This document shows, piece by piece, positions 27,135 to 45,478 of a stretch of 64,000 nt of DNA. How positions within the stretch are numbered: position 1 is the stretch's first letter; every line of letters starts with the position of its first letter. The notes under the pieces are model-generated. The model saw nothing but the letters and a program-made list of their open reading frames with translations, had not been told where the DNA came from and searched no databases. The translations under genes and the position numbers were made by a program. This DNA is from Patescibacteria group bacterium (lineage in GTDB: Bacteria > Patescibacteriota > Patescibacteriia > 2-12-FULL-60-25). The stretch is from positions 10,704 through 74,703 of the forward strand of contig JBDRFZ010000030.1 of NCBI GenBank assembly GCA_043818395.1, given 5' to 3'.

Positions 27135-27172
<38 letters not shown>

Positions 27173-28028
27173 TAAAGAAAGCGTAACAGCTCACTGGTCA
27201 AGCTGACCTGCACCGAAAACTTACCGGGGCTCAAGTACATAACCGAAGTCGCGAATGTTTTCCGGTTTTTAACCGGAGGGCGTGGTAAGGGAGCATTCGT
27301 AACTGCGCTGAAGCGAAAGGCGTGAGCCATCGTGGAGCGTTGCGAAGAGAGAATGTCGGCATAAGTAGCAAAAAGACAGGTTAAAATCCTGTCCACCGTA
27401 AACCCAAGGTTTCCAGGGCAACGAGAATCGTCCCTGGGTTAGCCGGTCCTAAGGCCAGGCCGAAAGGCGTAACCGATGGATAGCAGGTGAATATTCCTGC
27501 GCTGCCTATAGGTTTCAATGGAGTGACGTGTTCTTGCATTTTTCGAGAATCCCGGAATGATTCTTCGGGCACGAAGGGGCGTGGTATAGGCAAATCCGTA
27601 CCGCATAAACCTCGTTGTGTACGCTAGTCTGCCGCGAGGCGGGCAAGGAAAGAGAATGGGGCACCAAGAAAACCTTCTAGAGTTAACCTGTAGGCATCCG
27701 TACCGTAAACCGACACAGGTGGGTGGGCATAAGTGTGCCAAGGTGTACGAGAGAACCCGTGTGTAGGAACTCGGCAATACAACGGCCGTAACTTCGGGAT
27801 AAGGCCTGCCCAGCTCAGCTGGGCTACAACAAAAGACGCAAACCGACTGTTTACCAAAAACACAGCTCCCTGCTAAACCGTAAGGTGATGTATAGGGAGT
27901 GATGCCTGGCCAGTGTCAGAACGTTAAGAGGAGGGGTCATACCGCAAGGTGGCAGCCCTGAATCCAAGCGCTGATGAACGCCGGCGATAACTATAATCGT
28001 CCTAAGGTAGCGAAATTCCTTGTCGGGT

Positions 28029-28787: not shown

Positions 28788-29303
28788 AGTTCCGACCCGC
28801 ACGAATGGCATAACGAGTTTGCGACTGTCTCCACATGGGACTCGGTGAAATTGCAAGTGGGGTGAAGATGCCCTGTACGCGTAGTCAGACGAAAAGACCC
28901 CGTGAAGCTTTACTACAACTTGATATTGGGTCGCGGCTTTTCATGTTCAGAATAGGTGGGAGCCTTCGGGCAACAGTGAGATACCACCCTTGAACTGACG
29001 CGATTCTCGATCCCTATCCGTGAATCCGGATGGGGAGACAGTATCTGGTGGGTAGTTTAACTGGGGCGGTTGCCTCCTAAAAAGTAACGGAGGCGTTCAC
29101 AAAGGTCAGCTAGGCGCGGATGGAAATCGCGCTGATTCCGCAATGGGATAAGCTGGCTTAACTGCAAGACCAACAAGTCGAGCAGATGCGAAAGCAGGAC
29201 ATAGTGATCCGACCGTACGATATCGGACGGCGGAAGCTCAACGGATAAAAGCTACTCCGGGGATAACAGGCTGATCGCGCCCAAGCGTCCACAGCGACGG
29301 CGC

Positions 29304-29344
<41 letters not shown>

Positions 29345-29375
29345 TAGAAGCTCCCAAGGGTTTGGCTGTTCGCCA

Positions 29376-29419
<44 letters not shown>

Positions 29420-30186
29420 AAAGATCGTGCTGTCTATAAATTCGACTATATGCTGGAAACTCTGGTTTGACTTCCAATTAGGAGTTGGAGTCTAAAGAAT
29501 CTCATGCTACAGGTTATAATAAAAAAATTATGACACGTAAAAAAGCATTGAGTGCAGACAATCAGCAGGGAAGATTACATCATCGTCTTGAACCATGGTA
29601 TGTCAGTGGATTTATTGACGGCGAAGGCAGTTTTCATATCGCGATTTATCAAGATCAAATAATGAAAACTGGCTGGAAGGTTATTCCAGAATTTCATGTC
29701 TCGCAAAGAGTTTCGAGCCGGTGCGTCCTTGACGCACTTGTAAGATTCTTTAAATGCGGTTATGTGAAAATGAATCACCGATTGAATCCGAAAGATGTTA
29801 CCTATGTATATGTAGTAAGAGATCGAAAAGATTTAGCGACAAAAATCATGCCTTTTTTCCGCCGGTATAAGTTACAAACAGAGAAAAAAGAAGATTTTAA
29901 AAAGTTTTCTCAGATTATCGAGTTGATGTTAAATGAGCGTCATCGAACGTCTGTCGGACTAAAGCAGATCATAAAGATCGCATATTCTATGAATGGTTCC
30001 GGCCGTTATCGAAAACGACCAAAAAAGACGATTTTATAAAACCCTCAGAGACTATATGTCGAAAGCCGATATGCATCGGTTAAGATATAGTCCGAACTGC
30101 ATGGCGACATGCAGAGTCCGACGGAAACGTCGGATCGCCACGGAGCGAAATCAGATTATTGATGTGGTTTGCGAAGTAACAATGTG
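29420..30186 (+). mobile_element. 23S intervening sequence 2 (intron-like, 767 nt) carrying a LAGLIDADG ORF
   Basis: The exon GTCGTGAGACAGT ends at 29419 and resumes as TCGGTCTCCTGTCTAC at 30187. This lies within the peptidyl-transferase-centre strand, near E. coli position 2600 by recalled numbering. Confidence 0.8.
29530..30039 (+). CDS. single-motif LAGLIDADG homing endonuclease
   Basis: YVSGFIDGEGSFHIAI motif. About 169 aa from MTRKKALS. Lies inside the second 23S insertion. Confidence 0.85.
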   Translation: MTRKKALSADNQQGRLHHRLEPWYVSGFIDGEGSFHIAIYQDQIMKTGWKVIPEFHVSQRVSSRCVLDALVRFFKCGYVKMNHRLNPKDVTYVYVVRDRKDLATKIMPFFRRYKLQTEKKEDFKKFSQIIELMLNERHRTSVGLKQIIKIAYSMNGSGRYRKRPKKTIL

Positions 30187-32019: not shown

Positions 32020-32182
32020 GTAAAAATAAAGAAGGGTTGTAAAGGCAGTCTAGGCACCTTACAAATAAACTCAAAGGCTTGAAGGAGAGAGCAAGTCCGC
32101 GAATCCAATTTTATACACCAAGGGGTGATGGATTCGGGCGCTTTTTCCTAAAAGCTACCGAGTTCCATCACCCTTTTTGGTT
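32020..32182 (+). ncRNA. candidate ~160-nt terminated leader or sRNA
   Basis: Starts just downstream of the promoter. Hairpins TTGTAAAGG/CCTTACAA and GGCTTG/CAAGTCC are followed by a long terminator hairpin (32122-32132 pairing with 32164-32174, then TTTTT). There is no ORF. Confidence 0.35.
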
Positions 32183-32184
32183 GT

Positions 32185-32900
32185 CAGCTGGAACTTGAAA
32201 GGCAGACCCTACATTCTGCAAAACGGGCTTCGGCCCAAGCGCGGATACTCGAGGTACATAAAAAGCGGCTAGGGCAATAGTCAACAAAGTTTCGTTCGCT
32301 ACTCGCGAACACCGCCCAAAATACCGCTTCTCAATTCTGCCTTTCATATTCCAGCTCGCAAGAGCTTGAACCTTATAACTACCGCGATACTGATTGTTTT
32401 GGAGAATGAAATAGGAGAGAGATCCTGCTCCAAGATAATGAGTCGCATCTCTATTTGGTCCCGAACTAAAACGGGACAGTTGATTCGGAGTAATACCAAA
32501 ACCACCCGCCGAGAGAAGGGTGGCACGGCAAACAACCGGAGATCGACCTCGAAGTCCCTTAGAGAGACTTCGTAGTAACGAGTGCGTCCTGCCCTCTCCG
32601 ACCGTCGGAGGGGACCGGGACAGTCGCTACTACCATGGTTATGTAATAGACGACGGTCAGGACGCGACGAACTTTGACAACAAAATTCTGCTCAAGCGGA
32701 CGAACACCAATAACAATCATCTTGGGTTTCGTTTCGTCCTCTTAAGCAGAGCGCGGTTCTACTGAAGGAGTAACGCACTGGTGCGAAACTCTGGATGATA
32801 AACGGCGCTTGAAGAACGGAGGCCGGTGGCTAGATAAACCGCCGGTTAGAAAAATGGCAAAGTAGAACAAAAAAAATATCAAAATTAATTCGTTCGCGTC
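32185..32900 (+). ncRNA. candidate large structured RNA region (class unknown)
   Basis: No ORF of 60 aa or more has a ribosome-binding site. A 21-position helix with 19 pairs joins 32186-32206 to 32336-32356. A UUCG tetraloop hairpin lies at 32225-32236 and a GCAA tetraloop hairpin at 32353-32366. At least six further clean hairpins were noted, including 32458-32477, 32502-32523, 32550-32572 and 32584-32591/32658-32665. Confidence 0.35.
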
Positions 32901-33424
32901 AATTTTTTCCAAACAGTATTCAATAATAAGTTCGAGGCTCGCAATGAGCCAGAACAGAAAGGAGATCGAGAAAATAGCGGCACAGTTGAGTGCCGATCTC
33001 GCCGATCCGGAGCAGTTCCGGACGGTCATGGAGCTTGCGACCAACCGCTAGCTCCAAACCTCTCCCGCTGTTACGAGGTACAGCGGGAACAAAGAGGAAC
33101 CAACCTCAAAACGCACTCGGAGAGAAGCGCACACTTCTCATCCGATCCGAATTTTGGAAGCCCATAATTACTAAACTTGGGACTAAATCCAGACTTCAGA
33201 TCGGAGCAATCCGAAAATTACTCATGGATTCTCATTTGGCATCATAATCAAAGCGGCGGTAAAAAAGCCACCCACTGAGTTATGGAACCAAACGAGAAGC
33301 TATGAAGCCGGCACGGATAAATTCTGCACGTTGCAGGATCACGTGCGCGGTTGACGCGACTCAAACACGCACAAAACAAATATCGTGGAACGCCACGAGA
33401 ATACGTTTTGTGCAAAGGAGGCAG

Positions 33425-33610
33425 ATGGCCCATTGGCCAGCTTCCGGCCCCCACGGCCAGTGCCCGTGGTGTGGCGCGTCTGAAGACATCGGGGACTGCT
33501 GTCCCGATGCCCAGGCCGCCACCCGCGAGCCCGAGGCCGAGGGTTACCTCTGTGAGGGCGATGAAAACCGCTCTCACGGAGCCGACTCCACCCATCGGGT
33601 GGAGAATTAA
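33425..33610 (+). CDS. possible small Cys-rich protein (61 aa)
   Basis: AAAGGAGG lies 3 nt upstream of the ATG. The peptide MAHWPASGPHGQCPWCGAS...DCCPD has a zinc-ribbon-like Cys pattern. It could also be non-coding GC-rich sequence. Confidence 0.3.
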   Translation: MAHWPASGPHGQCPWCGASEDIGDCCPDAQAATREPEAEGYLCEGDENRSHGADSTHRVEN

Positions 33611-33826
33611 CCCCGGTGGGGAAACAAACGCACCGGCGTGAACCGGGACAGCTCGAACAGGGCGTCATGTGACGTCGTATCGAGTTGCGGGAGATGAGCG
33701 CCGCTTGAGGAGGGAGTGCAAGCGATCTTGCACGAGACTCCATGGCTCAAGCGCCGGAAATGACTGCCGGCGCCTAATCGCGGATTAGTCACCGCGTTTC
33801 GTACATTTCCCGGGTCTATCACCTGG

Positions 33827-34038
33827 GTTTGAGCAAAATCCTTGCTCTCTAAAACGACAGGTCGCGGCGCTTGATCACATGATCTAACATCGCGGGTTTC
33901 ACAGACCATGAATCACTCTTGAGTAATCAAGATCAATTCAAAACTGTGAGCTTGAGACGCCGTCTCCGTTTAGTAGAACGTAAAACTACAGCTACTCGCA
34001 TGCTCTCTTACGCTACTGCACAAGGCAATAGAGAGCAT
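33827..34038 (+). repeat. non-coding module A (paralog of module B)
   Basis: Shares these blocks with 35374-35603: GTTTGAGC(A/G)AAATCC, ATCGCGGGT(T/A)TCACAGACCATG, CAAAACTGTGAG(C/A)TTGAGACGC(C/A)GTCTCCGT and GAACGTAAA. It also shares a terminal hairpin whose loop contains CTGCACAAG. Confidence 0.75.
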
Positions 34039-34106
34039 CCGATCCTATTTCCGCACACTCCCATAAAGAAATCATTCTGGGTTCGTGGTTCGGAAATGAG
34101 ATCGGA

Positions 34107-34676
34107 TTATGGTCGGGCGTTTTCTTCCAATGCCGTTATTCGTTCTTCGTGGCGAAGACTGGCGTTCCGAAGGGAGGAAATCTCGATATCAACAGTCCGA
34201 TGATGCGTGGCGAACCAGTCAACATGCGTCAGAATCTCCTGCTTGAATTCTTGTAGATCATCCTTAGTCGCGAATCCAAGCAGATCATCCTTGGTGGCGA
34301 AACGCTCATCAAGGCGCCGGAATTGATCGTCTGTATGGGAAGATAGGTCGTGAACAGCCTCGAGTATGTCTTGAATTGAGGTTGTGTGTTCCTGGGAAAC
34401 AGATTTTAACCCTGCAACGTCCGTCTTCAGCTCGGTTACATCTGATTTTAACCCTGCAACGTCCGTCTTCAGCTCGGTTACATCCTTTGCAAGGATATTA
34501 ACCGTAGATTTGAGATCGGTCATGTCCTTCGTAAGACCGGCTACGCCTTTAGAAAGACCGGCCATGTCTTTAGAAAGGCCTTGGACTACATCTAAAATCT
34601 TTTCGTTGGCTGAATCAGCGGTCATATGGAGAGCATTAGTGAATGAAGAATAGCATCCTCTAAATACCGCTGCCAT
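34107..34676 (-). CDS. coiled-coil repeat protein (14-aa tandem repeats, ATKDDL motifs)
   Basis: 189-aa ORF. The repeat DVTELKTDVAGLKS occurs twice and FATKDDL occurs twice. The architecture parallels 45083..45478. The start (34676 or 34625) is uncertain. Confidence 0.55.
   Translation of the reverse strand: MAAVFRGCYSSFTNALHMTADSANEKILDVVQGLSKDMAGLSKGVAGLTKDMTDLKSTVNILAKDVTELKTDVAGLKSDVTELKTDVAGLKSVSQEHTTSIQDILEAVHDLSSHTDDQFRRLDERFATKDDLLGFATKDDLQEFKQEILTHVDWFATHHRTVDIEISSLRNASLRHEERITALEENARP
34402..34485. repeat. near-perfect 2 x 42-bp tandem duplication inside the coiled-coil gene
   Basis: GATTTTAACCCTGCAACGTCCGTCTTCAGCTCGGTTACATC(T/C) at 34402-34443 and 34444-34485. The two copies differ only at the last base. 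Confidence 0.9.
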
Positions 34677-34995
34677 AAATCGAGGGAGAGGTCAAGATGT
34701 GGATATTCGGAAACAGCGTTTTCTCGGTAGAAATCGTGATTCGAAAAAGTTCGAAGCACGATTTCTCTCGAGGAGAGAGAAAATTTTGATCGGATGATCT
34801 GAAGCGACGTCTCATACGTGAGCGAATCAAATCAGGCTCGGATCGAACGGCCGCGCGTAACGGTCGATAGCTCCATCGAGAGGTGAAGAAGAAACGTAAG
34901 CGCGGCTCCGACGCATTCGGGCAAGCGAACTCGGCGGATATTGAAACCCGCCTTTCAGAATGGAGCCCGCGGCTAGATAAACCGCGGGAGAGAAC

Positions 34996-35337
34996 ATGGC
35001 CGGCACCTACACCGTCACCGCCACCTCCGTCACCGCCACCTCCACCCCCGCCACCCTGCTCCGGTTGAGCTTCGGCTCGCCGGCGCAGAACGACGTCATC
35101 GTCCGCGACGCCGTCGTCGCCCTCGAGGCCCACAAGCTCGAGGGGGGGAAGCTGGTCCTACTGAATGGGCCCGCTTCCCTGCCAGTGGCTTGCGCCCTCG
35201 CGCACGGCCTCGGGCACATCTTCGGCGCCATCGGGGTCTTCGACCCCAAGATGGCGGGGTACGTAGTCGCGGTCAGTCATGACCCGACGTTCCCCGTGGG
35301 GATGACCATCCCAGCGTCGGAGGTGAAAGAGGGCTGA
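34996..35337 (+). CDS. Csx3-like protein (CARF-related cyclic-oligoadenylate ring nuclease family, Crn3)
   Basis: The segment GKLVLLNGPASLPVACALAHGLGHIFGAIGVFDPKMAGYVVAVSHDP matches my recollection of A. fulgidus Csx3 (G.VISGRGPIWLHCFLAHKYHH...AVYDPRLGAVVVQSH), including the His/Asp positions. Not verified by search. Confidence 0.5.
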   Translation: MAGTYTVTATSVTATSTPATLLRLSFGSPAQNDVIVRDAVVALEAHKLEGGKLVLLNGPASLPVACALAHGLGHIFGAIGVFDPKMAGYVVAVSHDPTFPVGMTIPASEVKEG

Positions 35338-35373
35338 TCACCCTCTCGAAACATATCTCGGATTGATCTCCGA

Positions 35374-35603
35374 GTTTGAGCGAAATCCCAGCTCTAGAAA
35401 ATGATGGGTCGTGATACGAGATCGAGAGATTAAGTATCGCGGGTATCACAGACCATGGAATTAGAAAAAAGTATCGTGTACTGAGTACCGGGTACTATCT
35501 CTCTAAACTCCAAAACTGTGAGATTGAGACGCAGTCTCCGTCCGTGGAACGTAAATTCACTAACACTCGAAACCCACCTAAGCCCTGCACAAGCTGCGGT
35601 GGG
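35374..35603 (+). repeat. non-coding module B (paralog of module A; its terminal hairpin is a paralog of 45023-45068)
   Basis: See module A for the shared blocks. The hairpin ACCCACC/GGTGGGT carries a loop containing CTGCACAAG. Confidence 0.75.
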
Positions 35604-35800
35604 TTCCTCGAACTGAATGTTTAAAAAAATGTCGTCTCGACTAAAACGGAGAGACCTTCAATTTGAAGATCCATTCGACTCGGCCACGGTTCTATTTTTT
35701 GGATAGGCCTTCGCTCAGGATGACAATTTTTAAACGCTCGATTCGAGGAAATGGTTCCTCCAAAACTTTCCCGCAGAACGCGGGAGAAAGGAGACGGCTA

Positions 35801-36385
35801 GTGAAAGTCGTACTCTGTGGACCCCCGCGTTCGGGGAAGTCCTGCCTAAGGCAGGGCTTAAAGGACGCGGTACGGAGCATTCCTGGGGCTCCGTACCCCT
35901 ACGTCATCACCGCGTGCCCCGACGGGGAGGGCTCGTGGTTCCAGGAGACGGTGAACTCCGACCCCGAGGCTGCTGCGAAGTTCAAGGCGGCCTACAAGAG
36001 CAAGTTCACCCCCGAGTTCGTGCGCAGGGTCGCGGACTCGGTGAAAAACTGCACCCTGTCTCTTACGCTGGTGGATATAGGCGGTATCCCCAGCGCAGAG
36101 AATAAAGAAATTTGCGCCGCCGCCACGCACGCCGTTCTTCTCGCAGGGGATACCTCGCGGTTCCCCGAGTGGCGTGAGTTTTGCGAGAAACTCGGAATCT
36201 CTGTCCTGGCCGAGATTGCGAGTAACTACCAAGGCCAGGAAGACTCCCCGCCGTATCTCGACGGCGACGAGGGAGTCTTCGTCGGTTCGGTTCACCACCT
36301 CGAACGCGGTGAACCGGTCGCAGAGCGCCCGACTGTCAAGGCGCTCGCCGAGATTCTGGTCGCGTTGGTCGGCGATCAGGAGTAG
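35801..36385 (+). CDS. P-loop NTPase (kinase/ATPase-like), function unknown
   Basis: AAAGGAGA SD and a GTG start. Walker A (VVLCGPPRSGKSC), an ACPDGEGSW segment and a Walker-B-like LSLTLVDIGG. Confidence 0.6.
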   Translation: MKVVLCGPPRSGKSCLRQGLKDAVRSIPGAPYPYVITACPDGEGSWFQETVNSDPEAAAKFKAAYKSKFTPEFVRRVADSVKNCTLSLTLVDIGGIPSAENKEICAAATHAVLLAGDTSRFPEWREFCEKLGISVLAEIASNYQGQEDSPPYLDGDEGVFVGSVHHLERGEPVAERPTVKALAEILVALVGDQE

Positions 36386-36405
36386 TTAGACCAACCGGGC
36401 GAAGA

Positions 36406-36737
36406 GATCCCTCGACTTCGCTCGGGACGACAGAGGGCAGGAGATATAGCGACTCCTCTTTTAAACAATTCGCTTATCACTCGAAGCTCGGTTGCACATC
36501 CGGGCTCTTCGAATGGAAGTTTGATTGAATTCGTCATTCCCGGGAAAATGGGAATCCAGGTAGCTTGCTGATGGATCCCCGCTTTCGCGAGGATGACGTA
36601 GATCGAAAATCCGTTCGAGGAAGAGTTCCTTGTGTTTTTCTTTCCGCACAGGTCCGGAACAGATGCCTATTTTGACGGATGAGTCAGATGACTCTCTCCG
36701 TCAGGCTACCTGTTATCTTAGGGGGAAGTTCCGGATC
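36406..36737. repeat. left copy of a ~300-bp imperfect direct repeat (E and D modules)
   Basis: E1 (36406-36459) and D1 (36653-36737) are colinear with E2 (43904-43956) and D2 (44123-44207). Shared strings include ACAGAGGGCAGGAGATA, ACTCTCTCCG and GGAAGTTCCGGATC. Confidence 0.6.
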
Positions 36738-36759
36738 GGTGCGGGAATAAAAAACAAAA

Positions 36760-36984
36760 TCAAATTAGTTTTATAAAGTCTTCCGGTGACAGATCGATAT
36801 CGCGCAAAATGCCTCTGAGCGTACCGCGCGGCAAGTCTTGATTGCCATGCATGGGGATGGTTGCCAACCGACCATCACGATGGCGTAATTGAACATGGCT
36901 GCCGCGTTGTCGCGTAATCATAAACCCTGCTTTTTGCAGGGTTGCGATCAATATTTTACCGGAGATAACCGGAAGCGGCGGCAT
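36760..36984 (-). CDS. hicA: HicA-family mRNA interferase toxin
   Basis: 74 aa. GKILIATLQKAGF ... RQRGSHVQLRH is a typical HicA/YcfA core. Confidence 0.85.
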   Translation of the reverse strand: MPPLPVISGKILIATLQKAGFMITRQRGSHVQLRHRDGRLATIPMHGNQDLPRGTLRGILRDIDLSPEDFIKLI

Positions 36985-36989
36985 AACGA

Positions 36990-37223
36990 TCAGATTTGCG
37001 GTTCAGCTACTGTCTCGAAAGTCTCAAAGCTTCTGTCTTCCGGAAGTGACTCGCGATTGGCTGCCATATCTTCCAAATAAAGCTGGATGGCTTCGCGGAT
37101 ATTTTGTTTGGTTTCTTCCAAGGATTTGCCCCAGGTATGACAACCGGGCAACGAAGGTACGAAAGCATGAAAAGACTGACCCTCATCCGGCTCGATGATT
37201 ACTCGATAAGTCAATGCTCTCAT
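36990..37223 (-). CDS. hicB: HicB-family antitoxin (N-terminal UPF0150 fold only)
   Basis: YRVIIEPDEGQSFHAFVPSLPGCHTWGKSLEETKQNIREAIQLYLE. Sits directly upstream of hicA. Start taken at MRALTYR. Confidence 0.8.
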   Translation of the reverse strand: MRALTYRVIIEPDEGQSFHAFVPSLPGCHTWGKSLEETKQNIREAIQLYLEDMAANRESLPEDRSFETFETVAEPQI

Positions 37224-37253
37224 ATGTCTGAAGCCTAACATCGGACGGACGGC

Positions 37254-37305
37254 CTGTCAAAGGCCAAACCTTCCCTTGTCAAACCTTCCCTTGTCAAACC
37301 TTCCC
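37254..37305. repeat. tandem 15-bp repeats TTGTCAAACCTTCCC (2 perfect, 1-2 degenerate)
   Basis: Perfect copies lie at 37276-37290 and 37291-37305, with degenerate copies at 37254-37275. Lies between divergent hicB and the 37404 gene. On the minus strand each unit contains TTGACA. Confidence 0.85.
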
Positions 37306-37403
37306 ATGCTTAAAAAAGGTTCTAAAATTATTTGGAATCTTTTTTGAGGATGAGTATCCTCTGGCGCGCCGGACGAATTCCGGATTTGGCCAACGGAGGA
37401 AAC

Positions 37404-37754
37404 ATGGCCAAAAAAATTCTCTGGATGTCGCGCCATCGACCGACGGCGCGGCAGATCCAGTCGCTCCGCGTCATGTATGGCGCGGATACGGTCGTCGAAG
37501 TGGAGCCGCGGCCCTTCGACGACGCGCGACAGATCGCGCGGCGATTCAAGGAAGGCGGATTCCACGATCTCGTGGTCGTGGCGCCGCTTTCGGTCCTGGC
37601 TGTCTTGTGCGATCAGGGGCTTAAACCTCTGTGGTCACAGGCGGCCGAGGAAAACGATCCCGCGAAGATCGAATTTCGCGGGGCACGTGGGCAGGGCTAC
37701 CGCTTCGTCCGGTTTCGCCGAGTGAAGCGAGTGGCAGTCGAGTTTGAGGACTAA
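37404..37754 (+). CDS. hypothetical protein (116 aa)
   Basis: GGAGGA SD 4 nt upstream of the ATG. GC-rich codon usage consistent with the neighbouring genes. No motif recognised. Confidence 0.5.
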   Translation: MAKKILWMSRHRPTARQIQSLRVMYGADTVVEVEPRPFDDARQIARRFKEGGFHDLVVVAPLSVLAVLCDQGLKPLWSQAAEENDPAKIEFRGARGQGYRFVRFRRVKRVAVEFED

Positions 37755-37778
37755 CAAAAACAAAAAGGAAAGGAAAAA

Positions 37779-38051
37779 ATGGTCCAGAAAGTCTGGACCC
37801 TGGCTTCGGGTCAGGAGGTCGTGGATCGCGACGTCTCGCATATCCATGCGGGCGTCACGGACGAACTCTTATCCGAGGCACTCTCGTCGCTAAGCGTAGG
37901 TGACGGAGAGCGGGTCAAATATACGCATTTCTTCAGACGCACGGTCGGTGTCTCCCATTGCGTGAAAACGCAGGACGGGGAAGCTCCGAAGCGTCATGGG
38001 CAAGCGGTCATCTGCCTTTTTGTGGACAAGATAAACGGGTGCGGGAGTTGA
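37779..38051 (+). CDS. hypothetical protein (90 aa)
   Basis: AGGAAAGGA SD-like stretch before the ATG, 24 nt after the previous stop. Confidence 0.4.
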   Translation: MVQKVWTLASGQEVVDRDVSHIHAGVTDELLSEALSSLSVGDGERVKYTHFFRRTVGVSHCVKTQDGEAPKRHGQAVICLFVDKINGCGS

Positions 38052-38098
38052 TTGGTTCTCTCGCAAGTCCACCCCAAAACTCCGGAAAGGAGAAAACC

Positions 38099-38452
38099 AT
38101 GAACAAGGAAGAATGGAAAGAAGAAAAAGCGCGTCGTCAGGACGCGCTGAAAGAATTTGAAACAAAAAACGCGGCCGAGCTCGAGGCCGCCCGCCACTTG
38201 TTGGCGGAGAACGAGCGCCTGCGCCGGTTGGCGTGGGCTGGCGCCCCCGAAGGGCACGCCCGTTGTTACGGCTACGACGAAGAGTCGGACGTCGACTGCG
38301 ATAAGGTCGTGCCTTTGCGGGAACATGAAAGTGTTCCCGTGGGGTGGTGTATTCGCACCTATGGCTGCGGGTGCAGTGAGCCAGAGACAATGTTTTGTCC
38401 GGCACATGCGCACCAGGCACGCGAAGACCGTTGTGCCGAATGCAGTCGTTAG
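38099..38452 (+). CDS. hypothetical Cys-rich protein (117 aa)
   Basis: GGAAAGGAGA SD before the ATG at 38099. N-terminal helix, then a C-terminal cysteine cluster (CYGY...DC...CIRTYGCGC...CPAH...CAEC). Confidence 0.45.
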   Translation: MNKEEWKEEKARRQDALKEFETKNAAELEAARHLLAENERLRRLAWAGAPEGHARCYGYDEESDVDCDKVVPLREHESVPVGWCIRTYGCGCSEPETMFCPAHAHQAREDRCAECSR

Positions 38453-38605
38453 TTCTTTCTCGCGGTGCGCTCACGTTTTGTGATGCGCACCGCCCGTTTT
38501 TTTCGTACATATTGGATGGTCCGATGTGCACGGAAAGTTCGGTCGGCGATGACGTAATCGTCGCTACAAAAAAAAGGCCGCCAAGGGCGGCAGAAAGAGA
38601 ATCAC

Positions 38606-39820
38606 GTGAGTGATCTCAAAACGGCCGTTGCCCTGGCGGCCAAGATCCAGGGCATTTCAAAGGACGTCCTCGCGCGCCACATTGGGCGCGGGGACGTGGT
38701 GCGAGCCACCTGGCTCGCACTCGTGAGCGGCCGTCCGGCCTTCTTCCTCGGGCCTCCCGGGGTGGACAAGACCGGGACGGTTCAGGATTTGGCGCGTAGG
38801 GTCGACGGAGCCGTCTTTTTTGACGCGCTCATGCCGACCCTCGTCTCGGTCGAGCAGCTCCTCGTGGAGAGTACCTCCATCGAGGAGTCGTCGACGGCGG
38901 ATGGCGGAAAGTCCATCCGTACGCGCGACACGCTCGGCCGCGCTGCCGGCGCGCATCTCCTCTTCGCCGATGAGATCTGGAAAGCAGAACCCCGTGTTCT
39001 GCAGACGGTTCTCGACCTGGCGAAAGGGGACGGCGTGCGCCACGAGGGAACGCAGGTCAAGACGCCTCTCAAGGCGTTCTTGGCCGCGTCCAACGAGCTC
39101 CCTGACTCCGAGGGAAACCTCGGCGCGGTTTGGTCTCGTATGACCATCCGCGTCGTAGTCAAGGAGCTCGATCGCAAAGGCAAAACCGCGTTGGTCAAGG
39201 CGCGGTTGGCCAAAGTACGTGGCATGTCTGCCAAGGCCAGCGGGAGCGACAAGCTCACGCTCGCCGAAGTGGACGATCTGCGCGCTGCGCGCAGCCGGAT
39301 CGAAATCTCGGATGAAATCGTGGAGATCGTGCTCGACATCGTCGAGCAGCTCCGCGATGAAAACTCCGGAACGTTCGACTGGGCCTGGGCCGACGACCGG
39401 CGTTTCGGTCGCGTGTTCGACGTCATGCAGGCTAACGCCTTGCTCGATGGCCGAACGCGGGTCGGAAAACAGGACCTCGCGGTTCTGGAGTGGCTACTCT
39501 GGGATTCACCCGAGCAGATTCCGACGGTCAAGGCCAAGATCGCGCCGTTTTGCCGCACTCCGCTCATGGATGCACAGGAGATGCTCGACGCACTCCTGGC
39601 TCCCGGAGGGGTTGTGGCAGATGTGCTCGGCGGCAACCGGACCAAAGGCGTGGCGGCTCTGACGCAGTGTGAAAGCTGCGCCGGTGAGCTTGCTACGCTC
39701 AAGGCCAGCGCTGACGCGAGTATGGCGCAGGGCATCGACCAGCTGGTCCGGCAGCTGGAGTCCGTGAAAGCGGACGTGATCGCAGTGATCACCGGAACGC
39801 GGACGTCCGCCGCGAAATAG
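38606..39820 (+). CDS. MoxR-like AAA+ ATPase
   Basis: Walker A (FFLGPPGVDKTG), Walker B (LLFADEIWKAEP) and the following VLQTVLDL...G segment are typical of MoxR/AAA_5 ATPases. GTG start. Confidence 0.75.
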   Translation: MSDLKTAVALAAKIQGISKDVLARHIGRGDVVRATWLALVSGRPAFFLGPPGVDKTGTVQDLARRVDGAVFFDALMPTLVSVEQLLVESTSIEESSTADGGKSIRTRDTLGRAAGAHLLFADEIWKAEPRVLQTVLDLAKGDGVRHEGTQVKTPLKAFLAASNELPDSEGNLGAVWSRMTIRVVVKELDRKGKTALVKARLAKVRGMSAKASGSDKLTLAEVDDLRAARSRIEISDEIVEIVLDIVEQLRDENSGTFDWAWADDRRFGRVFDVMQANALLDGRTRVGKQDLAVLEWLLWDSPEQIPTVKAKIAPFCRTPLMDAQEMLDALLAPGGVVADVLGGNRTKGVAALTQCESCAGELATLKASADASMAQGIDQLVRQLESVKADVIAVITGTRTSAAK

Positions 39821-39861
39821 CGGACCCGTAGGGGCGGGGTCTCCCCGCCCAAGGAGGATAC

Positions 39862-41652
39862 GTGGAAGAAACTCGAAAGGGCGGACCCGCGTGTCCGCCC
39901 ATCGCGCGACAGGAGCTGCAAAAGCTCCTGGTGACGGACGCGGACGCCTTTACGGCGCTCCGCTACCTCCGTCACCGCGAGAACGTTCCCTCGCTCCCGG
40001 ATCTGGAAGAGCAGGGCCGCAAGGCTCTGCCCGGGATTGAGGGTAGTCTCTGCGACCTCTACCACACGCTTTGGGCGCCAGAGCCCAGCGTGAAGGAAGA
40101 GGTTGCGTCGGACCGCCGTTACTGGCGTGAGTTGCTCGGTGAGGCTGTGAAATCCACGGCATACGCCGAGCTGCATGCCAGTACGCAGCTCTCGGAGCTA
40201 AAGTCCGTACTGGGCACCGTGGCCATGGGTGAAACCGTGGTCAAGACGGTGTCCAAGGAGGACGCTGAGAAGCTGCAAGAGACGGCAACTGCGCAACGTG
40301 AGGCCGACGATGCGCAGCAAGAAGCAGACCAGGCGCAAGCCGCGGCAGACATGGCGCAAGCCATGTTCGAATCCGCGAATGCGCAAGCTGGTCAGGGCCA
40401 GGGGAGCGGAGGATCTCAAAAAGATCCTTCGACTACGCTTCGCTCCGCTCAGGACGACAGTTCTGGCGGACAGCTGCAGCCCGGCCAGGGCAAACCCGGA
40501 AAAAGATCCCTCGACTCCGCTCGGGACGACAATTCGTCATCGACCGGTGGGCGAGGGACACTGACCCCGGAGCAAGCCAAGGCGTTGGCTGACGCACTGG
40601 CTGATGAGTGGCTCAAAGCGCAGGAATGCGCCGAGGCCGCGAATCAGTTAGCCGCCGAAGCCAAAGCCAAGGCCGAAGCCCTGGCTAATGAACTTCTGGG
40701 CCAACCCGGCAAGCAGCAAGCGGAGCAAAAGCTTCGCGAACTGGCGCGCGCCGGGCAAGCGGCAATCAAGGCCGCACAAGCCAAGGTGGAGGAGGTTTCC
40801 GAAACCATCGAGGCTTGGGGACTTGAGGAAGCCGAGCTCACGCGCCAGAGCATTCCCGAAGCATTGGGTTTGCTCGAGCGCATGAAGCGAAGTGCGGCAC
40901 TCAAGAAGTTCGCGGCTCTGCTCGGTCGCTTGCGCAAGATCGCGGCTCGCAAAGCGCGATCCAAAACGCAGGCCAGAGGCGTACGCATTGCTATCCCGGA
41001 AACGGGACGCGACATGCGCCGCGCCTACCCGAGCGAGCTGGTGGCTCTCGCACATCCGGCGACCCGCACCCAAGCGCTCAAGCGCTGGGCACGCGGCGAG
41101 CTGCGATTGCGCGGCGAGCAAGCTAAGCAAAAGCTTGGCCATGGCCCGGTCATCGTCTGCGAAGACGCGTCCGGGTCCATGGATGGAGCCAAGCAACAGT
41201 GGGCCAAGGGAGTAGTTCTTTCCCTGGCGCACTTTGCAAAACTCCAGAAGCGGTCGTTCGGTTGGATCATGTTCGATTCCCGAGTTCATCGGGCGGAAGA
41301 ATATCCTGCCGGGCGCATCGCGGCCAAGCAGATGCTTGATATCGTGGAGTCCCACGCCGGTGGCGGCACGGACTTCGAACGCCCACTGCGCAAAGCGCTG
41401 GAAATGGTGAAACAAACCGGCCTCAAAAAGGCCGACATCTGCTTCATCACCGACGGCGAATGCGCAGTGAGCGAAACTTTCCTGCGGGAATTTAAAGCGG
41501 CTAAACGCGAACTTGAAATCAATGTCTTCACGATTCTGTGCGACGTTGGTTCGAGCGCGGACAGCACCGTCAGCGAATTCTCTGACAGGATCGAAACGGT
41601 TTCCAGCTTCTCGGCAGAAGAAGCGGAGACCAAGGTGTTTGGTTCTTTGTAG
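39862..41652 (+). CDS. vWA-domain protein with an acidic, low-complexity linker (CoxE/CobT-like architecture)
   Basis: AAGGAGGA SD and a GTG start. The C-terminal vWA domain has the MIDAS motif (VCEDASGSMDG) plus GGGTDFERPL and FITDGE. The central linker is Ala/Gln/Asp-rich. Confidence 0.8.
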   Translation: MEETRKGGPACPPIARQELQKLLVTDADAFTALRYLRHRENVPSLPDLEEQGRKALPGIEGSLCDLYHTLWAPEPSVKEEVASDRRYWRELLGEAVKSTAYAELHASTQLSELKSVLGTVAMGETVVKTVSKEDAEKLQETATAQREADDAQQEADQAQAAADMAQAMFESANAQAGQGQGSGGSQKDPSTTLRSAQDDSSGGQLQPGQGKPGKRSLDSARDDNSSSTGGRGTLTPEQAKALADALADEWLKAQECAEAANQLAAEAKAKAEALANELLGQPGKQQAEQKLRELARAGQAAIKAAQAKVEEVSETIEAWGLEEAELTRQSIPEALGLLERMKRSAALKKFAALLGRLRKIAARKARSKTQARGVRIAIPETGRDMRRAYPSELVALAHPATRTQALKRWARGELRLRGEQAKQKLGHGPVIVCEDASGSMDGAKQQWAKGVVLSLAHFAKLQKRSFGWIMFDSRVHRAEEYPAGRIAAKQMLDIVESHAGGGTDFERPLRKALEMVKQTGLKKADICFITDGECAVSETFLREFKAAKRELEINVFTILCDVGSSADSTVSEFSDRIETVSSFSAEEAETKVFGSL

Positions 41653-41822
41653 GGGCACAGCGTGCTGTGCCCCTACGCTCGGACGACGTTTGCCGCATCG
41701 TCTTTTGCTCTCGGGAAGCGCAGCACTTGCGCTTCCCCTGATTTTTTCCGTCTGGAGCATGGTGCTCGAGATGGGAAATTTCAGTTTTTCGGCCGTGCAT
41801 GGCCAAGTAAAAGGAGGCCGCC

Positions 41823-43886
41823 ATGGCCGAGAAAAGAATTGAAACAGTCCTGGCCAAGGCCGGGAATAACCCGGCCGAAGCGGTGGCCACCATTGGCCGC
41901 CGCAGCATCTGTTTCCTGCCGCGCGGCGTTACGCCCGGGCAGGAGGTCCGTGTCGAGCTCGTTGAGCTCGGCAAAAATGACAGCCGCGGAAATCCAATGT
42001 TCCGCGGCGTGGCCGCTCCCACGGAGACCGTGGTCGAGTGGCGTGAACTCGACGGCAGGTTCGAGAGCGTTGAGTTCTCGGTCGACTGGAAGCTCCAGAA
42101 GACCGAGAAACGCGTGCTCGAGAGCCGCGTGCCAGTCAAGCGCGACGGCGTACCGAGTCGCAACGCGAGCTTCAAGGTCGACTGGGCTCAGTCGTTCACC
42201 GACGCCCGGATCAAGGTCGAAATCAAGACTGAGATCCCGGAGCTCGAGGAACAACTCGGCTCTAACGGGCCGGCGATGATCGAGAAGACTCGCCGTGACG
42301 GCGGCACCACGGTCGAAGAGTTTGCGCTCAAGACCCTGGAGCCCTGCCGCTCGGGCTACGTCGACTCCAATGACTGGCACGGTAAGCGTCTGCGTGCCAG
42401 TTATGAGGGAGAGCCGAAGCTGTTCGTTAGCTTCATACTTTCCTACGGCGAGAAGTCGTTCGAGACCAACTCGCAAGAGTGGTCTTCACTGCCGACGTGG
42501 CTCAAGGAGCAACTCTCGGCCCCGTATCCGCTCTGCGGATGCGGGCAGTCTCGTTTCGATTCTGCGGGGCATCATGCCTGCGCAGACTGCGAGACGATCG
42601 AGCGCGTTCTCCCGGCCGAAAAGCGGCAGGAGATCGCGGCGCTTGCCGAGAAGCTCCTTGCCGTGGAGCCTCTGCCTCGCGAAGCCGGCGAGATCGTGCT
42701 CAAGTCAACGCTTGGGCATGTGACGTCGGAATACACGCGCGACAGTATTCTCCGCCAGTGGTCCGGGTTCGCCTGGTACTACTTTGCGGGTGATGGCGTG
42801 TACGGGAGCAAGTTCCCGCGATCCGCGCTCCAGGTTCTGCGTTTCATTGCGCAGGCCGAAGGCGATGGATTGTTGGAGCTCGCGGCCTGGCTCTGCGGTC
42901 GCGACAAGGCGGACGACTGCGAGCGCTACGGAGATTACTTCGTGGCGACGCAAGTCAAAGGCGAGAGCCGGTCGCGCACGCTCCAGAGCAACCGCGACGC
43001 CACGGCCGCAATTCGCCTGCGCGGCTCTGAAGCCGACCGTTTGGCTGCGCTCGAAGCGTATGCCGAAATGGTCGAGGTTTGGGGTAAGGATTCGAGCCAG
43101 GCGGAATCGCTTAACACGATTCTGCAGGGTGAGAGTCAGGACTATAGCCAGGCCATGGCCAAGGCGCAGGACGCGCTGCGACTCCATGAAGCACGGACGC
43201 GCGCCATCCAAGCCGGAGAAATTTGGCAGGATGTCCGTGTGAATTGGGAAGAAAGTAGTAATGGCCGAGCCCGTGGCAAAGGCTGGGCCATTGCGCCGGA
43301 TGGAGAGTTCTACCCGGAATTAGATGGCGATGCTCACGCCTTCGGTGACCTGCCAACCAACACGCTTGTGCTTTCGCACAGCACCTCGGATTATGGCTAC
43401 CGCTATACCGAATGCTGGACGGTTCACAAGCTGCCCAAGCAGGTCACGGGTGAGCAGCACGTGGCGCTTACAGGACTCCTTCAAGGGGAACGGCAGTTTT
43501 TCTGCGGTGATCGGGCGACGTGGAATCTAACCCGCGAGGGGACTGTTCGCATCGCCACCGCTTACCACAGAGACTTCGTCGGGACCGATGCCGAAGCGCA
43601 TCGGGCCATGCGTGGCACCTTGCCCATGGATTTGTCCAGATGGTTCCTGTATGAAGTCATGCAGGACGAACATGGATATGATCTGCAGGAAGCGATGCTG
43701 GAAGTCTGGCATCGCGAGGTGCGCGACGCGCATGGCATGCGCCTGCGGTATCGCCCGGCGGCTGCTGCAAAGCAGTTCAAGAAGGTCGCTCCCGCCAACG
43801 TCAAGCCCGCAAGCGCTGAGCAGGTCACAACTTCGCTCGGCGCTCTCAAGGCCAAGTTCGGCGGCCGTCGCGAAAAGCGCCGCTAA
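41823..43886 (+). CDS. large hypothetical protein (687 aa), third member of the MoxR-vWA cassette
   Basis: AAGGAGG SD. Long GC-rich ORF with an internal CGCG...C..C cysteine cluster. No domain recognised by eye. Confidence 0.65.
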   Translation: MAEKRIETVLAKAGNNPAEAVATIGRRSICFLPRGVTPGQEVRVELVELGKNDSRGNPMFRGVAAPTETVVEWRELDGRFESVEFSVDWKLQKTEKRVLESRVPVKRDGVPSRNASFKVDWAQSFTDARIKVEIKTEIPELEEQLGSNGPAMIEKTRRDGGTTVEEFALKTLEPCRSGYVDSNDWHGKRLRASYEGEPKLFVSFILSYGEKSFETNSQEWSSLPTWLKEQLSAPYPLCGCGQSRFDSAGHHACADCETIERVLPAEKRQEIAALAEKLLAVEPLPREAGEIVLKSTLGHVTSEYTRDSILRQWSGFAWYYFAGDGVYGSKFPRSALQVLRFIAQAEGDGLLELAAWLCGRDKADDCERYGDYFVATQVKGESRSRTLQSNRDATAAIRLRGSEADRLAALEAYAEMVEVWGKDSSQAESLNTILQGESQDYSQAMAKAQDALRLHEARTRAIQAGEIWQDVRVNWEESSNGRARGKGWAIAPDGEFYPELDGDAHAFGDLPTNTLVLSHSTSDYGYRYTECWTVHKLPKQVTGEQHVALTGLLQGERQFFCGDRATWNLTREGTVRIATAYHRDFVGTDAEAHRAMRGTLPMDLSRWFLYEVMQDEHGYDLQEAMLEVWHREVRDAHGMRLRYRPAAAAKQFKKVAPANVKPASAEQVTTSLGALKAKFGGRREKRR

Positions 43887-43903
43887 AAAAACCCGAATAA
43901 AAT

Positions 43904-44207
43904 ATCCCTCAACTTTATTCGGGACAACAGAGGGCAGGAGATATGACAGCTCCTCTCATCGCAAGATGAAAAACAATCTGTCTGCACCTTGGGCGCGGCA
44001 ACCGTGCCCCTACGGGGAAGGATGAGATTGCACATCTCATCTTTCCCTCCTGAATTTTCTGACGTTTTTTAAAAAAGGTCGGAATGACAGGTTTCTCACA
44101 CGAGGTGGGTTTTCAGCACAGATTCGGAACAAGGCCTATATTGATTGGTTAGCCTAGCGAACTCTCTCCGCCGGGTCGCCCGTAATCATAGGAGGAAGTT
44201 CCGGATC
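43904..44207. repeat. right copy of the E and D direct repeat
   Basis: See the entry for 36406-36737. Confidence 0.6.
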
Positions 44208-44385
44208 TATGCGGAAAAAATGTAAAAAACACTCATGGTCATGAGTCTGATTAAAGTTAGACTCATGCCTATGATTGGGCAGATGGTTCAAATCCACACG
44301 AATAAGACGCGAAGCAATTATGTCGGACGTTTGAATGATCCAAGACTGGATCGATCGTGTGGAGGAGAGCAAGAAGGAAATAGAA

Positions 44386-44964
44386 ATGATCAAGTTCGAA
44401 ATCGCCAACATCGTAACTTCCTTTTCTTTTTTTGCGATCGGCACCAAGGTGCTCGATCGCGAGGGTCTGCTCACGGCGGCCGCGAAAGCGGTCGAGGCGC
44501 ACGACCCGTCGGGCGACCGGCAGCCAGGGCAGCACTTCGTGCTCGTCCCGGACGGCGTGCGGCTCGTCTCCGCCGGAGTTGGTCGCCGGACCGATAACCC
44601 CGACGACTATGTCGTACGGAAGGGTCGGTTCGCCGTTGACTGCTATCTTCGGCGTGAGAAGGCGGCGAAGGTCGAAGGCTTGGCTCTCGTGGTCTACACC
44701 AGGGACGCCTACCTCGCCGACCCCGACCTCCAGAAGCCGGAGGAGGCCGAGGAGCGCGCGCGGATCGAACAGAGCGACTGCACCCACGTCATCGTGGCCG
44801 TGCTCGCCTTTGCTGGCCCGCAGTCGCCACTGCCGCCCTCGACTTTCATCCACAACTTGGCCGGGGGAAACCTCGAGGTCGAGAAGTGGTCGAAGGAGGA
44901 GATCTGTGAGAAGGCCGCGCAGATCGAGGCGTACTGGAACGACTGGTGCATCGTGGCGGATTAG
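44386..44964 (+). CDS. hypothetical protein (192 aa)
   Basis: AAGGAA SD-like stretch before the ATG. The opposite-strand 260-aa ORF is Arg/Leu-rich, as expected for antisense of GC-rich coding DNA. No motif confidently recognised. Confidence 0.55.
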   Translation: MIKFEIANIVTSFSFFAIGTKVLDREGLLTAAAKAVEAHDPSGDRQPGQHFVLVPDGVRLVSAGVGRRTDNPDDYVVRKGRFAVDCYLRREKAAKVEGLALVVYTRDAYLADPDLQKPEEAEERARIEQSDCTHVIVAVLAFAGPQSPLPPSTFIHNLAGGNLEVEKWSKEEICEKAAQIEAYWNDWCIVAD

Positions 44965-45082: not shown

Positions 45083-45478
45083 TCAATTCCTTGCGAACGG
45101 ATCTATGGCCAGGATATGTTTAGCATCCTTTTCTTTGATAGCTTTATTGGATAAAGCGGCATCTATAAGCGCATTCACTTTATTATCTTCTTTTCTGATA
45201 AGAGAGACTAGGTCGCCCTTTAAATCACCAAGTTTGTCGTCCAGATAGTCTTTGGTGACCATAGTCGCTTCTATTTTATTAAATCGCTTATCAATTTGTT
45301 CAAACCGCCCGTCAATCTGCTCGAATCGCTTATCAATTTGTTCAAACCGCCCATCAATCTGTTCGAATTTACGATCGATTAAAGAGAAACGATTATCAAC
45401 ACTACCGGCAAAATCGTTTATAGCATCGAGCAGATCATGGTTCGTCGGTTCCTGATTCATATATAACAGAGCTATCAC
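45083..45478 (-). CDS. coiled-coil repeat protein (IDGRFEQIDKRFEQ tandem repeats, VTKDYL motif)
   Basis: 131 aa. The 42-bp repeat unit is duplicated at about 45283-45370. Composition is AT-rich. Same architecture as 34107..34676. Confidence 0.6.
   Translation of the reverse strand: MIALLYMNQEPTNHDLLDAINDFAGSVDNRFSLIDRKFEQIDGRFEQIDKRFEQIDGRFEQIDKRFNKIEATMVTKDYLDDKLGDLKGDLVSLIRKEDNKVNALIDAALSNKAIKEKDAKHILAIDPFARN

Follow-up and report, generated by a model that had tools for sequence, protein, structure and literature searches.

A 64-kb stretch of a contig derived from a metagenome-assembled genome (MAG) of a Patescibacteria bacterium, here called the window, carries within a GC-rich island a three-gene unit encoding a MoxR-class AAA+ ATPase, a protein with a von Willebrand factor A (vWA) domain and a 687-amino-acid (aa) protein of no known fold or family. 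With the island genes read from sequence alone, comparison with related loci identifies this unit as a genuinely conserved, co-inherited module whose gene order is strictly kept and whose upstream neighbours belong, in nearly all loci, to the Csx3 family and its associated P-loop proteins. Its role is read here, tentatively and at a little under an even chance, as that of a putative Patescibacteria-specific, horizontally mobile, nucleoside triphosphate (NTP)-dependent conflict module.

A sequence-only reading of this DNA had described seven closely spaced, GC-rich, co-directional genes, each with a good Shine-Dalgarno sequence, as a single candidate cassette. All seven open reading frames (ORFs) exist on the + strand, and a GC content of 57-63% against a background of ~43% agrees with the compositional claim; the cassette itself dissolves on comparison, only three of the seven genes being constant. 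The conserved unit consists of the genes for the MoxR ATPase, the vWA protein and the 687-aa protein. Related loci were retrieved via conserved ATPase peptides, 14 from a motif-pattern scan of 185,579 GTDB species genomes and 51 further from Joint Genome Institute (JGI) metagenomes, with 59 kept after redundancy removal, and the presence of each gene was judged from tblastn searches with a restricted set of queries. The genome-derived loci all come from Patescibacteria MAGs, with Paceibacterota, Harrisonbacteria, WWE3 and Parcubacteria among them; taxa are named as in the records, where a few automated labels look wrong, and the metagenome contigs are unlabelled. A vWA gene follows the MoxR gene in 50/51 testable ATPase-anchored loci, and a homologue of the 687-aa gene follows the vWA gene in 39/39 testable non-redundant loci, two very divergent copies being detected by profile only. 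Reciprocally, anchoring on the 687-aa protein recovered seven homologues on eight further contigs, all with a bpMoxR-type ATPase gene and a vWA gene directly upstream and with order and strand kept. Among relatives the MoxR-to-vWA gap measures 1-41 nucleotides (nt) and the spacer between the vWA gene and the third gene 58-220 nt, while identity to the window proteins falls from MoxR (58-84%) through vWA (49-77%) to the third protein (29-73%), indicating unequal evolutionary rates. Co-occurrence in other genomes therefore holds for these three genes but not for those encoding the 116-aa, 90-aa, 117-aa and 192-aa proteins; of the third and fourth partners envisaged by the sequence-only reading, the 687-aa protein is constant, whereas the 192-aa family is widespread and also occurs without the module. 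The spacing is close for most of the row (gaps of 24, 47, 153, 41 and 170 nt), but a gap of 499 nt means that the 192-aa gene is not closely spaced, and the Shine-Dalgarno sequences are good for most genes but weak ahead of MoxR (AGAAAGAGA).

By its motifs and lid the 404-aa protein (38606-39820, + strand) is placed among the MoxR-type AAA+ ATPases, in the RavA subfamily. Its Pfam matches, all above cut-off, are to bpMoxR (PF20030; 3e-18, 66.1 bits against a cut-off of 27), AAA_lid_8 (2e-12) and AAA_5 (3e-8), with a further match to phrog_19600 (2.6e-32), and RavA is the sole match in a PDB sequence search (5e-32, residues 11-311, comprising the AAA+ module and lid). The NCBIfam RavA model NF010054 is matched at 2e-31 over RavA positions 4-302 of 498; identification as a true RavA equivalog was rejected, the score of 109.7 bits lying far under the cut-off of 681 and the LARA and C-terminal RavA domains being absent. 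The AAA+ module and lid lead into a family-specific helical C-terminus of ~90 aa. The Walker A (GPPGVDKTG) and Walker B (LLFADE) motifs named in the sequence-only reading are both present and, together with sensor N163, R178 and the DDRRFGR motif, are invariant among relatives.

The 596-aa ViaA-like vWA adaptor protein (39862-41652, + strand) starts with a helical N-terminal part, followed by a low-complexity linker of acidic/Ala-Gln type, and ends in a vWA domain that runs to the last residue (596), with no domain after it. It matches VWA_CoxE (7e-8) and VWA_2 (2e-6) in Pfam and phrog_24053 (3e-59), and its match to the NCBIfam ViaA model NF008230 (1e-12) spans the vWA domain only; at 47.7 bits against a cut-off of 500, a true ViaA equivalog was likewise rejected. 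The metal ion-dependent adhesion site (MIDAS) is intact in sequence, as previously claimed: D435-x-S437-x-S439, T503 and D531 are all present and invariant in 11 sequences, phage homologues included. PDB profile sequence searches gave no match for this protein, the 687-aa protein or the upstream P-loop protein. The long acidic linker noted earlier exists, although part of it consists of two in-frame copies (40419-40449 and 40501-40531) of a 31-nt hairpin-forming repeat (AAGAGATCCCTCGACTTCGCTCGGGACGACA) that encode ...KDPSTTLRSAQDD... and ...KRSLDSARDDN... and are absent from all vWA homologues examined. Two further copies of this repeat, at 36402-36432 and 43899-43929, follow closely on the P-loop and 687-aa stop codons.

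The third core component (41823-43886, + strand), an unannotated 687-aa protein defined by its conserved position after the vWA gene, has no match in Pfam, PADLOC or NCBIfam and a single insignificant one in PHROGs (phrog_19587, E 0.009). The absence of a recognisable domain reported earlier thus stands at the level of families, and the housekeeping or phage structural family that the sequence-only reading had named as a refuting case was found in none of Pfam, PADLOC, PHROGs or Foldseek. Its family comprises 482 representatives at E<=1e-3 and 118 at 1e-30 in a 50%-clustered library; when 54 diverse members, including forms of 900-1226 aa, were scanned against Pfam for fusions, only stray zinc-finger matches appeared. 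An AlphaFold2 (AF2) model (predicted local distance difference test score 74) suggests an oligonucleotide/oligosaccharide-binding (OB)-like barrel at residues 1-75, a long antiparallel beta-sheet at ~79-215, a conserved helical core at ~262-465, a beta domain at 467-560 and a disordered variable tail at 581-687. Foldseek comparison of the model with PDB and BFVD gave no match at E<=1e-3, and only the first ~65 residues resemble OB barrels, those of the SPOUT1 OB insert (probability 1.0, E 0.1) and IF1/eIF1A. A Cys4 zinc ribbon (C238/C240/C253/C256) is invariant in the family; conservation is highest at residues 1-100 and 226-450 and lowest past 575, and the C-terminal beta domain recurs in other, likewise unannotated, architectures. 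Neither this protein nor any other module protein has transmembrane segments. A subset of the family, including the window protein (residues ~665-687) and its homologues in loci L001, L004 and L006, ends at the tip of the disordered tail in the motif (L/K)FGG...(K/R)(K/R)R, which could be a docking peptide; a docking peptide of the type LFGG..KKR shared across the island was rejected, the motif being confined to this subset and not found in other island proteins.

The neighbouring Csx3 gene is the strongest contextual signal, beyond what the sequence-only reading had assumed of a Csx3-like gene nearby. The 113-aa protein (34996-35337, + strand) belongs to the CARF-like/ring-nuclease family by Pfam (Cas_csx3, 2e-7, 31.3 bits with the cut-off at 21) and PADLOC (Csx3, 1.5e-15), while it scores below the cut-off of NCBIfam TIGR02579 (23 against 55 bits). 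In a weak alignment with AfCsx3 (E 0.12) the equivalent of Asp69 is kept and the position of His60 is occupied by Gly, which argues, within the limits of that alignment, against a fast ring nuclease. It is followed by a P-loop NTPase (35663-36385, + strand, likely start ATG 35720) that corresponds to the 'AAA' half of Csx3-AAA (PADLOC Csx3-AAA 2e-58, AAA-Csx3 (C3a67) 3e-32) and bears the Walker A motif GPPRSGKS (GPPxSGKS), an invariant PDGEG and a GTPase-type hhhhDxGG, with weak nucleotide-kinase-like matches in addition. Of the 46 loci whose upstream sequence is long enough to judge, 44 have at least one Csx3 or Csx3-associated P-loop gene upstream of MoxR; the two may be separate genes, as they are in the window, form a Csx3-AAA or AAA-Csx3 fusion, or carry a 165-aa domain in addition. 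An HD_4-type protein gene lies just upstream of MoxR in 24/53 loci, the window having no HD gene. Csx3-AAA and AAA-Csx3 were described as type III CRISPR accessory clusters 35 and 67 by Shah et al. 2018 (PMC6546367), and the Csx3-associated families are known only as uncharacterised type III CRISPR accessories predicted to be signal-regulated NTPases (PMC6546367); Csx3 itself was originally reported as an RNA deadenylase (cited in PMC7159879). The upstream genes resemble these accessories in matching the PADLOC models strongly (2e-58, 3e-48) and in being split or fused in both orders; unlike them, they are coupled to a MoxR-vWA triad and have no CRISPR array or cas gene nearby, none being found in the 64-kb window or in the domain listings of related loci. 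The literature searched holds no paper linking Csx3 to Patescibacteria and no description of a conserved Csx3 neighbourhood for a MoxR-vWA pair. Two hairpin copies, at 32822-32851 and 34965-34994, share the loop CTAGATAAA and have stems with compensatory changes (GCCGGTGG/CCGCCGGT vs CCCGCGG/CCGCGGG); the second copy ends one base ahead of the Csx3 start codon and may be a translational or RNA-level control element.

The module genes differ sharply in composition from their surroundings. The stretch at ~32-45 kb has 55-63% GC, and GC content at third codon positions (GC3) reaches 0.64-0.90 for the seven genes together with those for Csx3 and the P-loop protein, against 0.31-0.52 in host genes. 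The islands of related loci have 55-68% GC between flanks of 40-47%, and different housekeeping genes flank them in different genomes, so that chromosomal sites vary. These varying flanks and the foreign GC and GC3 are what the horizontal, accessory part of the proposed reading rests on. In the window and the close relative L001 the island occupies the same site, where the flanking PHP-domain gene is 78.5% identical and the island genes 73-84%; the similarity of these values indicates that the island predates the split between the two and kept its composition. The sequence-only reading had asked whether the genes might belong to a recognisable prophage replication module; no integrase, transposase, capsid, terminase, portal or replication gene was recognised by PHROGs and Pfam among the island proteins of the window and seven related loci, and ten further island proteins had no match in PHROGs. 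The excess of GC3 is also seen in Csx3, P-loop, 116-aa and 192-aa homologues at loci that lack the triad, as at L082 6173-8564 (0.78-0.93 against 0.45-0.57 in its genome). There appears to be a Patescibacteria-specific gene pool, comprising the Csx3, P-loop, MoxR, vWA, 687-aa, 116-aa and 192-aa families, whose GC3 lies far above that of the carrier genomes (window 34996-44964; L082 6173-8564; L027 10001-10351; L029 4988-11013) and persists, with no amelioration, even where the island looks vertically inherited.

Among characterised systems, RavA-ViaA offers the closest relatives, RavA being the best characterised one for the ATPase and ViaA the best named one for the vWA protein; the vWA domain of ViaA is also C-terminal to an N-terminal region, and the ATPase gene likewise precedes the vWA gene. 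The module nonetheless departs from it: scores lie far under the equivalog cut-offs (110 against 681 and 48 against 500 bits), the LARA and C-terminal RavA domains are missing, a third gene is constant, nothing ties the module to LdcI, Nuo or Frd, and its setting is Patescibacteria-restricted, island-borne and Csx3-linked. MoxR-vWA ternary conflict systems of VMAP, iSTAND, FtsH and beta-propeller types have been described by Kaur, Burroughs, Iyer and Aravind 2020 (PMC7159879), where the effector domains of the vWA component include OB-fold RNA-binding domains and, in one cyanobacterial system, a Csx3 domain. The present module shares with them a MoxR protein, a vWA protein and a faster-evolving conserved third protein, a mobile and patchy distribution, Csx3 and OB-type domains, which in that paper belong to the effector repertoire, and an ATPase above the bpMoxR cut-off. 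It differs in that the vWA domain is C-terminal, with no effector domain or beta-propeller behind it, that the P-loop is the standard GPPGVDKTG and not GxxxTAKS, and that the hosts are unicellular, ultra-small Patescibacteria and not multicellular bacteria; the VMAP system, moreover, has the strict order VMAP, MoxR, vWA, against MoxR, vWA, third protein in all loci here. As to VMAP-C, the 687-aa protein and 53 relatives yielded only stray zinc fingers, in a Pfam copy whose VMAP model is unconfirmed, and with no Pfam match the 687-aa protein is not recognisably a VMAP, iSTAND or FtsH protein. A beta-propeller system was rejected: the bpMoxR model is matched, but nothing follows the vWA domain and the P-loop reads GPPGVDKTG. 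The affiliation with the Aravind-group systems put forward in the sequence-only reading is consequently not sustained, the defining features of all four types being absent.

The reading as an NTP-dependent conflict module is favoured because of the reciprocal co-occurrence, the Csx3 link (44/46) and the HD gene (24/53); because of the precedents of Csx3 and OB effector domains (PMC7159879) and of an actinobacterial MoxR-vWA pathway with a demonstrated function in sensing threats (PMC13622651); because of the unequal rates, the variable C-terminus of the third protein and the reuse of its C-terminal domain elsewhere; and because of the varying flanks, the GC and GC3 excess, the intact ATPase and MIDAS motifs and the lack of transmembrane segments. 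We infer an interaction among the three proteins, nucleic-acid binding, coupling to a signal and the role in conflict. In the scheme envisaged, the vWA protein would capture a peptide of the third protein via its MIDAS site, and the MoxR hexamer would spend ATP on remodelling, activating or releasing the third protein, a putative nucleic-acid-binding (probably RNA-binding) sensor or effector. The Csx3-NTPase-HD genes might supply or tune a nucleotide or RNA-end signal, and the whole could form an NTP-dependent system of the defence or abortive-infection type in bacteria that mostly lack CRISPR-Cas. A bolder version, possible but held with more doubt, is that orphan type III CRISPR sensors (Csx3 with a GTPase-like NTPase, often an HD protein and the 165-aa 'X') were rewired to a RavA/ViaA-type pair that arms a structurally new RNA-binding effector, yielding an immune or conflict system of the Patescibacteria's own within a GC-rich mobile pool.

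Several observations weigh against the conflict reading. The counts describe one clade, with MoxR identity of at least 58%, as the loci were retrieved via conserved ATPase peptides. No recognisable effector (nuclease, protease, pore, TIR or the like) was found in the 687-aa protein or its relatives, and none of the loci showed an enzyme that makes a signal (Cas10, CD-NTase). PADLOC-DB v2 has no model for the triad, and in the PADLOC check that had been proposed with the sequence-only reading the ATPase, vWA, 687-aa and small proteins drew no meaningful match, although the upstream Csx3 and P-loop genes did. The shared site and the housekeeping-like identities in the window and L001 suggest that the island can be stably inherited, and the strong conservation of MoxR and vWA also fits a dedicated chaperone. 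Outside Patescibacteria, the pair's closest relatives are jumbo-phage MoxR and vWA genes that lie side by side (PHROGs 19600 and 24053), such as gp66/gp63 of Bacillus phage 0305phi8-36 and those of Moorella phage MTATph1 (vWA homologue CDS0114), and a role in virion assembly has been proposed for phage and archaeal-virus MoxR-vWA pairs (PMC7824862).

A dedicated chaperone or maturation system with no role in conflict, in which the pair assembles or inserts a cofactor into a Cys/His-rich 687-aa client, for example in RNA metabolism, is judged unlikely. RavA-ViaA, with RavA and ViaA as the closest characterised relatives, NorQ-NorD, CbbQ-CbbO and CoxD-CoxE are analogues, and MoxR-vWA pairs typically adjoin their client (PMC9976466, PMC13036017); the high conservation of MoxR and vWA, the invariant Cys4 site of the third protein and the stability of the island between the window and L001 would all suit it. 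It accords poorly with a module so patchy that the motif-pattern scan of 185,579 species genomes gave only 14 loci, all in Patescibacteria, with the varying chromosomal sites, foreign composition and variable third-protein C-terminus, and with the near-constant link to the CRISPR accessory Csx3, which would be unexpected for a metabolic client. Another alternative, likewise given a low likelihood, takes the module as cargo that works for a Patescibacteria mobile element or virus and not for the cell, with Csx3 as an anti-type-III-CRISPR ring nuclease and MoxR-vWA as a chaperone of morphogenesis or takeover, a role put forward for Acidianus two-tailed virus (ATV) and jumbo phages. The best non-Patescibacteria matches are indeed phage families (phrog_19600, 2.6e-32; phrog_24053, 3e-59), the phage pairs (considered with ATV p618/p892) share the adjacency and gene order of the module, their vWA half is 37% identical with an invariant MIDAS, an assembly role is on record (PMC7824862), and a GC-rich gene pool is common to distant Patescibacteria genomes. 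Yet the phage loci have neither a homologue of the third protein nor Csx3, a scan of IMG/VR with one peptide pattern found no relative of the 687-aa protein, and the Patescibacteria loci lack virion and replication genes, with none recognised for a capsid, terminase, portal, integrase, transposase or replication protein; the islands sit between housekeeping genes, with vertical inheritance possible, and the Gly at the His60 position of Csx3, in a weak alignment, speaks against a fast ring nuclease.

Healing, repair or processing of RNA ends, in which the P-loop kinase-like NTPase, an HD phosphoesterase, Csx3 as binder of RNA ends and an RNA-binding OB/zinc-ribbon protein would act with MoxR-vWA as assembly factor, is an improbable account. 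The reported deadenylase activity of Csx3 (via PMC7159879), the weak kinase-like P-loop matches, the HD_4 proteins in 24/53 loci and the OB-like barrel at the N-terminus of the third protein lend it some colour, but neither an RNA ligase (RtcB, Rnl) nor another hallmark of repair is present in any locus, the P-loop protein has DxxG GTPase-type and not kinase features, the window lacks an HD gene, and the domain assignments are weak. Least probable is that all seven genes work together with HicAB as a single cassette. Shared direction, GC-richness and Shine-Dalgarno sequences speak for it, as does the 116-aa gene, in many loci the immediate upstream neighbour of MoxR, but the neighbourhood statistics contradict the idea, only three of the seven genes being constant, the 116-aa and 192-aa families independent, the 90-aa ORF truncated, HicAB rare and different in composition, and the units separated by terminator-like hairpins and the 499-nt gap.

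Taken as a conflict system, the module offers a concrete and compact candidate (three to six soluble proteins) for how ultra-small, mostly CRISPR-less Patescibacteria handle phages and genetic parasites. Were this correct, the MoxR-vWA ternary systems would gain a fifth type, one whose third component has no known fold, and the uncharacterised Csx3-AAA family would have a context outside CRISPR loci. Even as a chaperone-client pair it would define an unannotated family of several hundred members with its obligate partners, and the 15-20 point GC excess that the gene pool keeps within AT-rich genomes is by itself of evolutionary interest.

The genes that accompany the triad in the window are less constant. 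A 116-aa protein (37404-37754, + strand, inside a 140-aa ORF) belongs to a family of 132 clusters at 50-82% identity and is predicted by AF2 to be a flavodoxin-like alpha/beta protein (pLDDT 93.7), for which Foldseek against PDB returned only generic Rossmann-like folds and no significant match; neither it nor the 117-aa and 192-aa proteins have a match in Pfam, NCBIfam, PADLOC or PHROGs. The family is present in 20/59 loci, mostly directly upstream of MoxR, and occurs also without the module (L027, L029). At L029 7283-8961 it lies within another GC-rich island with a ThiF (E1-like) gene and unannotated neighbours, which suggests a small protein common to several island types. The 90-aa ORF (37779-38051, + strand) is 68-70% identical to residues 2-64 of the 165-aa protein of L006 and divergent beyond, 36% identical to residues 454-515 of the 610-aa AAA-Csx3-X protein of L004, and has one insignificant PHROG match (E 0.003); since it corresponds only to the N-terminal 64 residues of the 165-aa family, which is found in 20/59 loci as a separate gene or as the C-terminal domain of AAA-Csx3 fusions, the window copy is truncated. 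The 117-aa ORF (38099-38452, + strand) is Cys-rich, as previously described, with 8 Cys; its sole homologue lies in L057, in a different position, downstream of the gene for the big third protein, and a weak resemblance to the C-terminus of the 165-aa family (E 0.7) is seen, so that by sequence it may be a remnant.

The 192-aa protein (44386-44964, + strand, inside a 209-aa ORF) represents a widespread Patescibacteria family of 259 clusters, mostly 187-195 aa long, a length that supports ATG 44386 over the 209-aa start. It accompanies the P-loop and Csx3 genes without the MoxR triad in L082 and stands alone amid housekeeping genes in L083, and is not module-specific; in the window it forms a separate transcription unit, 499 nt from the 687-aa gene with a hairpin at 44014-44048 between. 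The HicAB toxin-antitoxin pair reported earlier (HicA 36760-36984, HicB 36990-37241, - strand) is confirmed by Pfam, with HicA_toxin (PF07927, 6e-19) and HicB_lk_antitox (PF15919, 1e-13) both above cut-off. Its value as a pointer to the role of the module, which the sequence-only reading had assumed, is not upheld: GC3 is host-like (0.46-0.49), the strand is opposite, and the pair lies near the module in only 6/59 loci. It is probably a separate insertion.

Within the unit, a terminator- or attenuator-like hairpin with a T-run, noted previously, is present at 41713-41747 (+ strand) in the 170-nt spacer between the vWA and 687-aa genes (GGGAAGCGCAGCACTTGCGCTTCCC then CTGATTTTTT; 11-bp stem with 7 G-C pairs), and a second hairpin at ~41650-41676 directly follows the vWA stop codon. 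Similar GGGGAG...CTCCCC hairpins with a T/C tract occupy the same spacer in L001, L004 and L025, and the division into two transcription units at 41713-41747, already suggested in the earlier reading, is plausible. A repeated intergenic element of ~340-370 nt is present in two direct copies, 75-78% identical at both ends, one directly after the P-loop gene (36393-36759) and one directly after the 687-aa gene (43890-44229), which bracket the HicAB-to-687-aa segment. It is common only to the close relative L001 (4059-4139, 4819-4937, 5473-5509, 12307-12454). A role as attachment sites was considered and rejected, and the absence of the elements from L082, which has P-loop, Csx3 and 192-aa homologues but no triad, leaves the idea of a site-specific cassette unsupported.

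At the left edge of the island, ~2 kb of GC-rich DNA (~32050-34100) hold no convincing ORF or Rfam match, a search of 31.7-45.2 kb against Rfam at relaxed thresholds having given chance-level matches only. Further copies of repeats found between the island genes lie in this edge (33827-33969 is similar to 35374-35541), as do stretches that match L001 intergenic DNA, and the edge could represent decayed genes or unrecognised RNA. Coiled-coil genes at 34107-34676 and 45083-45478 (both - strand), of host-like composition and with internal 42-nt tandem repeats, bracket the Csx3-to-192-aa segment, and L001 also has coiled-coil counterparts on both sides; the idea that they are a duplicated target was rejected, their mutual similarity not being significant (E 0.07). 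Elsewhere in the window, a second GC-enriched stretch at 11-19 kb, reaching 55% GC, may be another island: it includes a 497-aa ORF (12071-13564, - strand) and an 871-aa ORF (15072-17687, + strand) with no Pfam match and GC3 of 0.57 and 0.62, adjoined by a methyltransferase gene. The 23S rRNA gene (25885-29473) measures 3.6 kb against the 2.9 kb of its model, and two LAGLIDADG homing-endonuclease ORFs are associated with it, one within the gene (28133-28744) and one just past its 3' end (29485-30039), with the 5S rRNA gene 1.2 kb further downstream.

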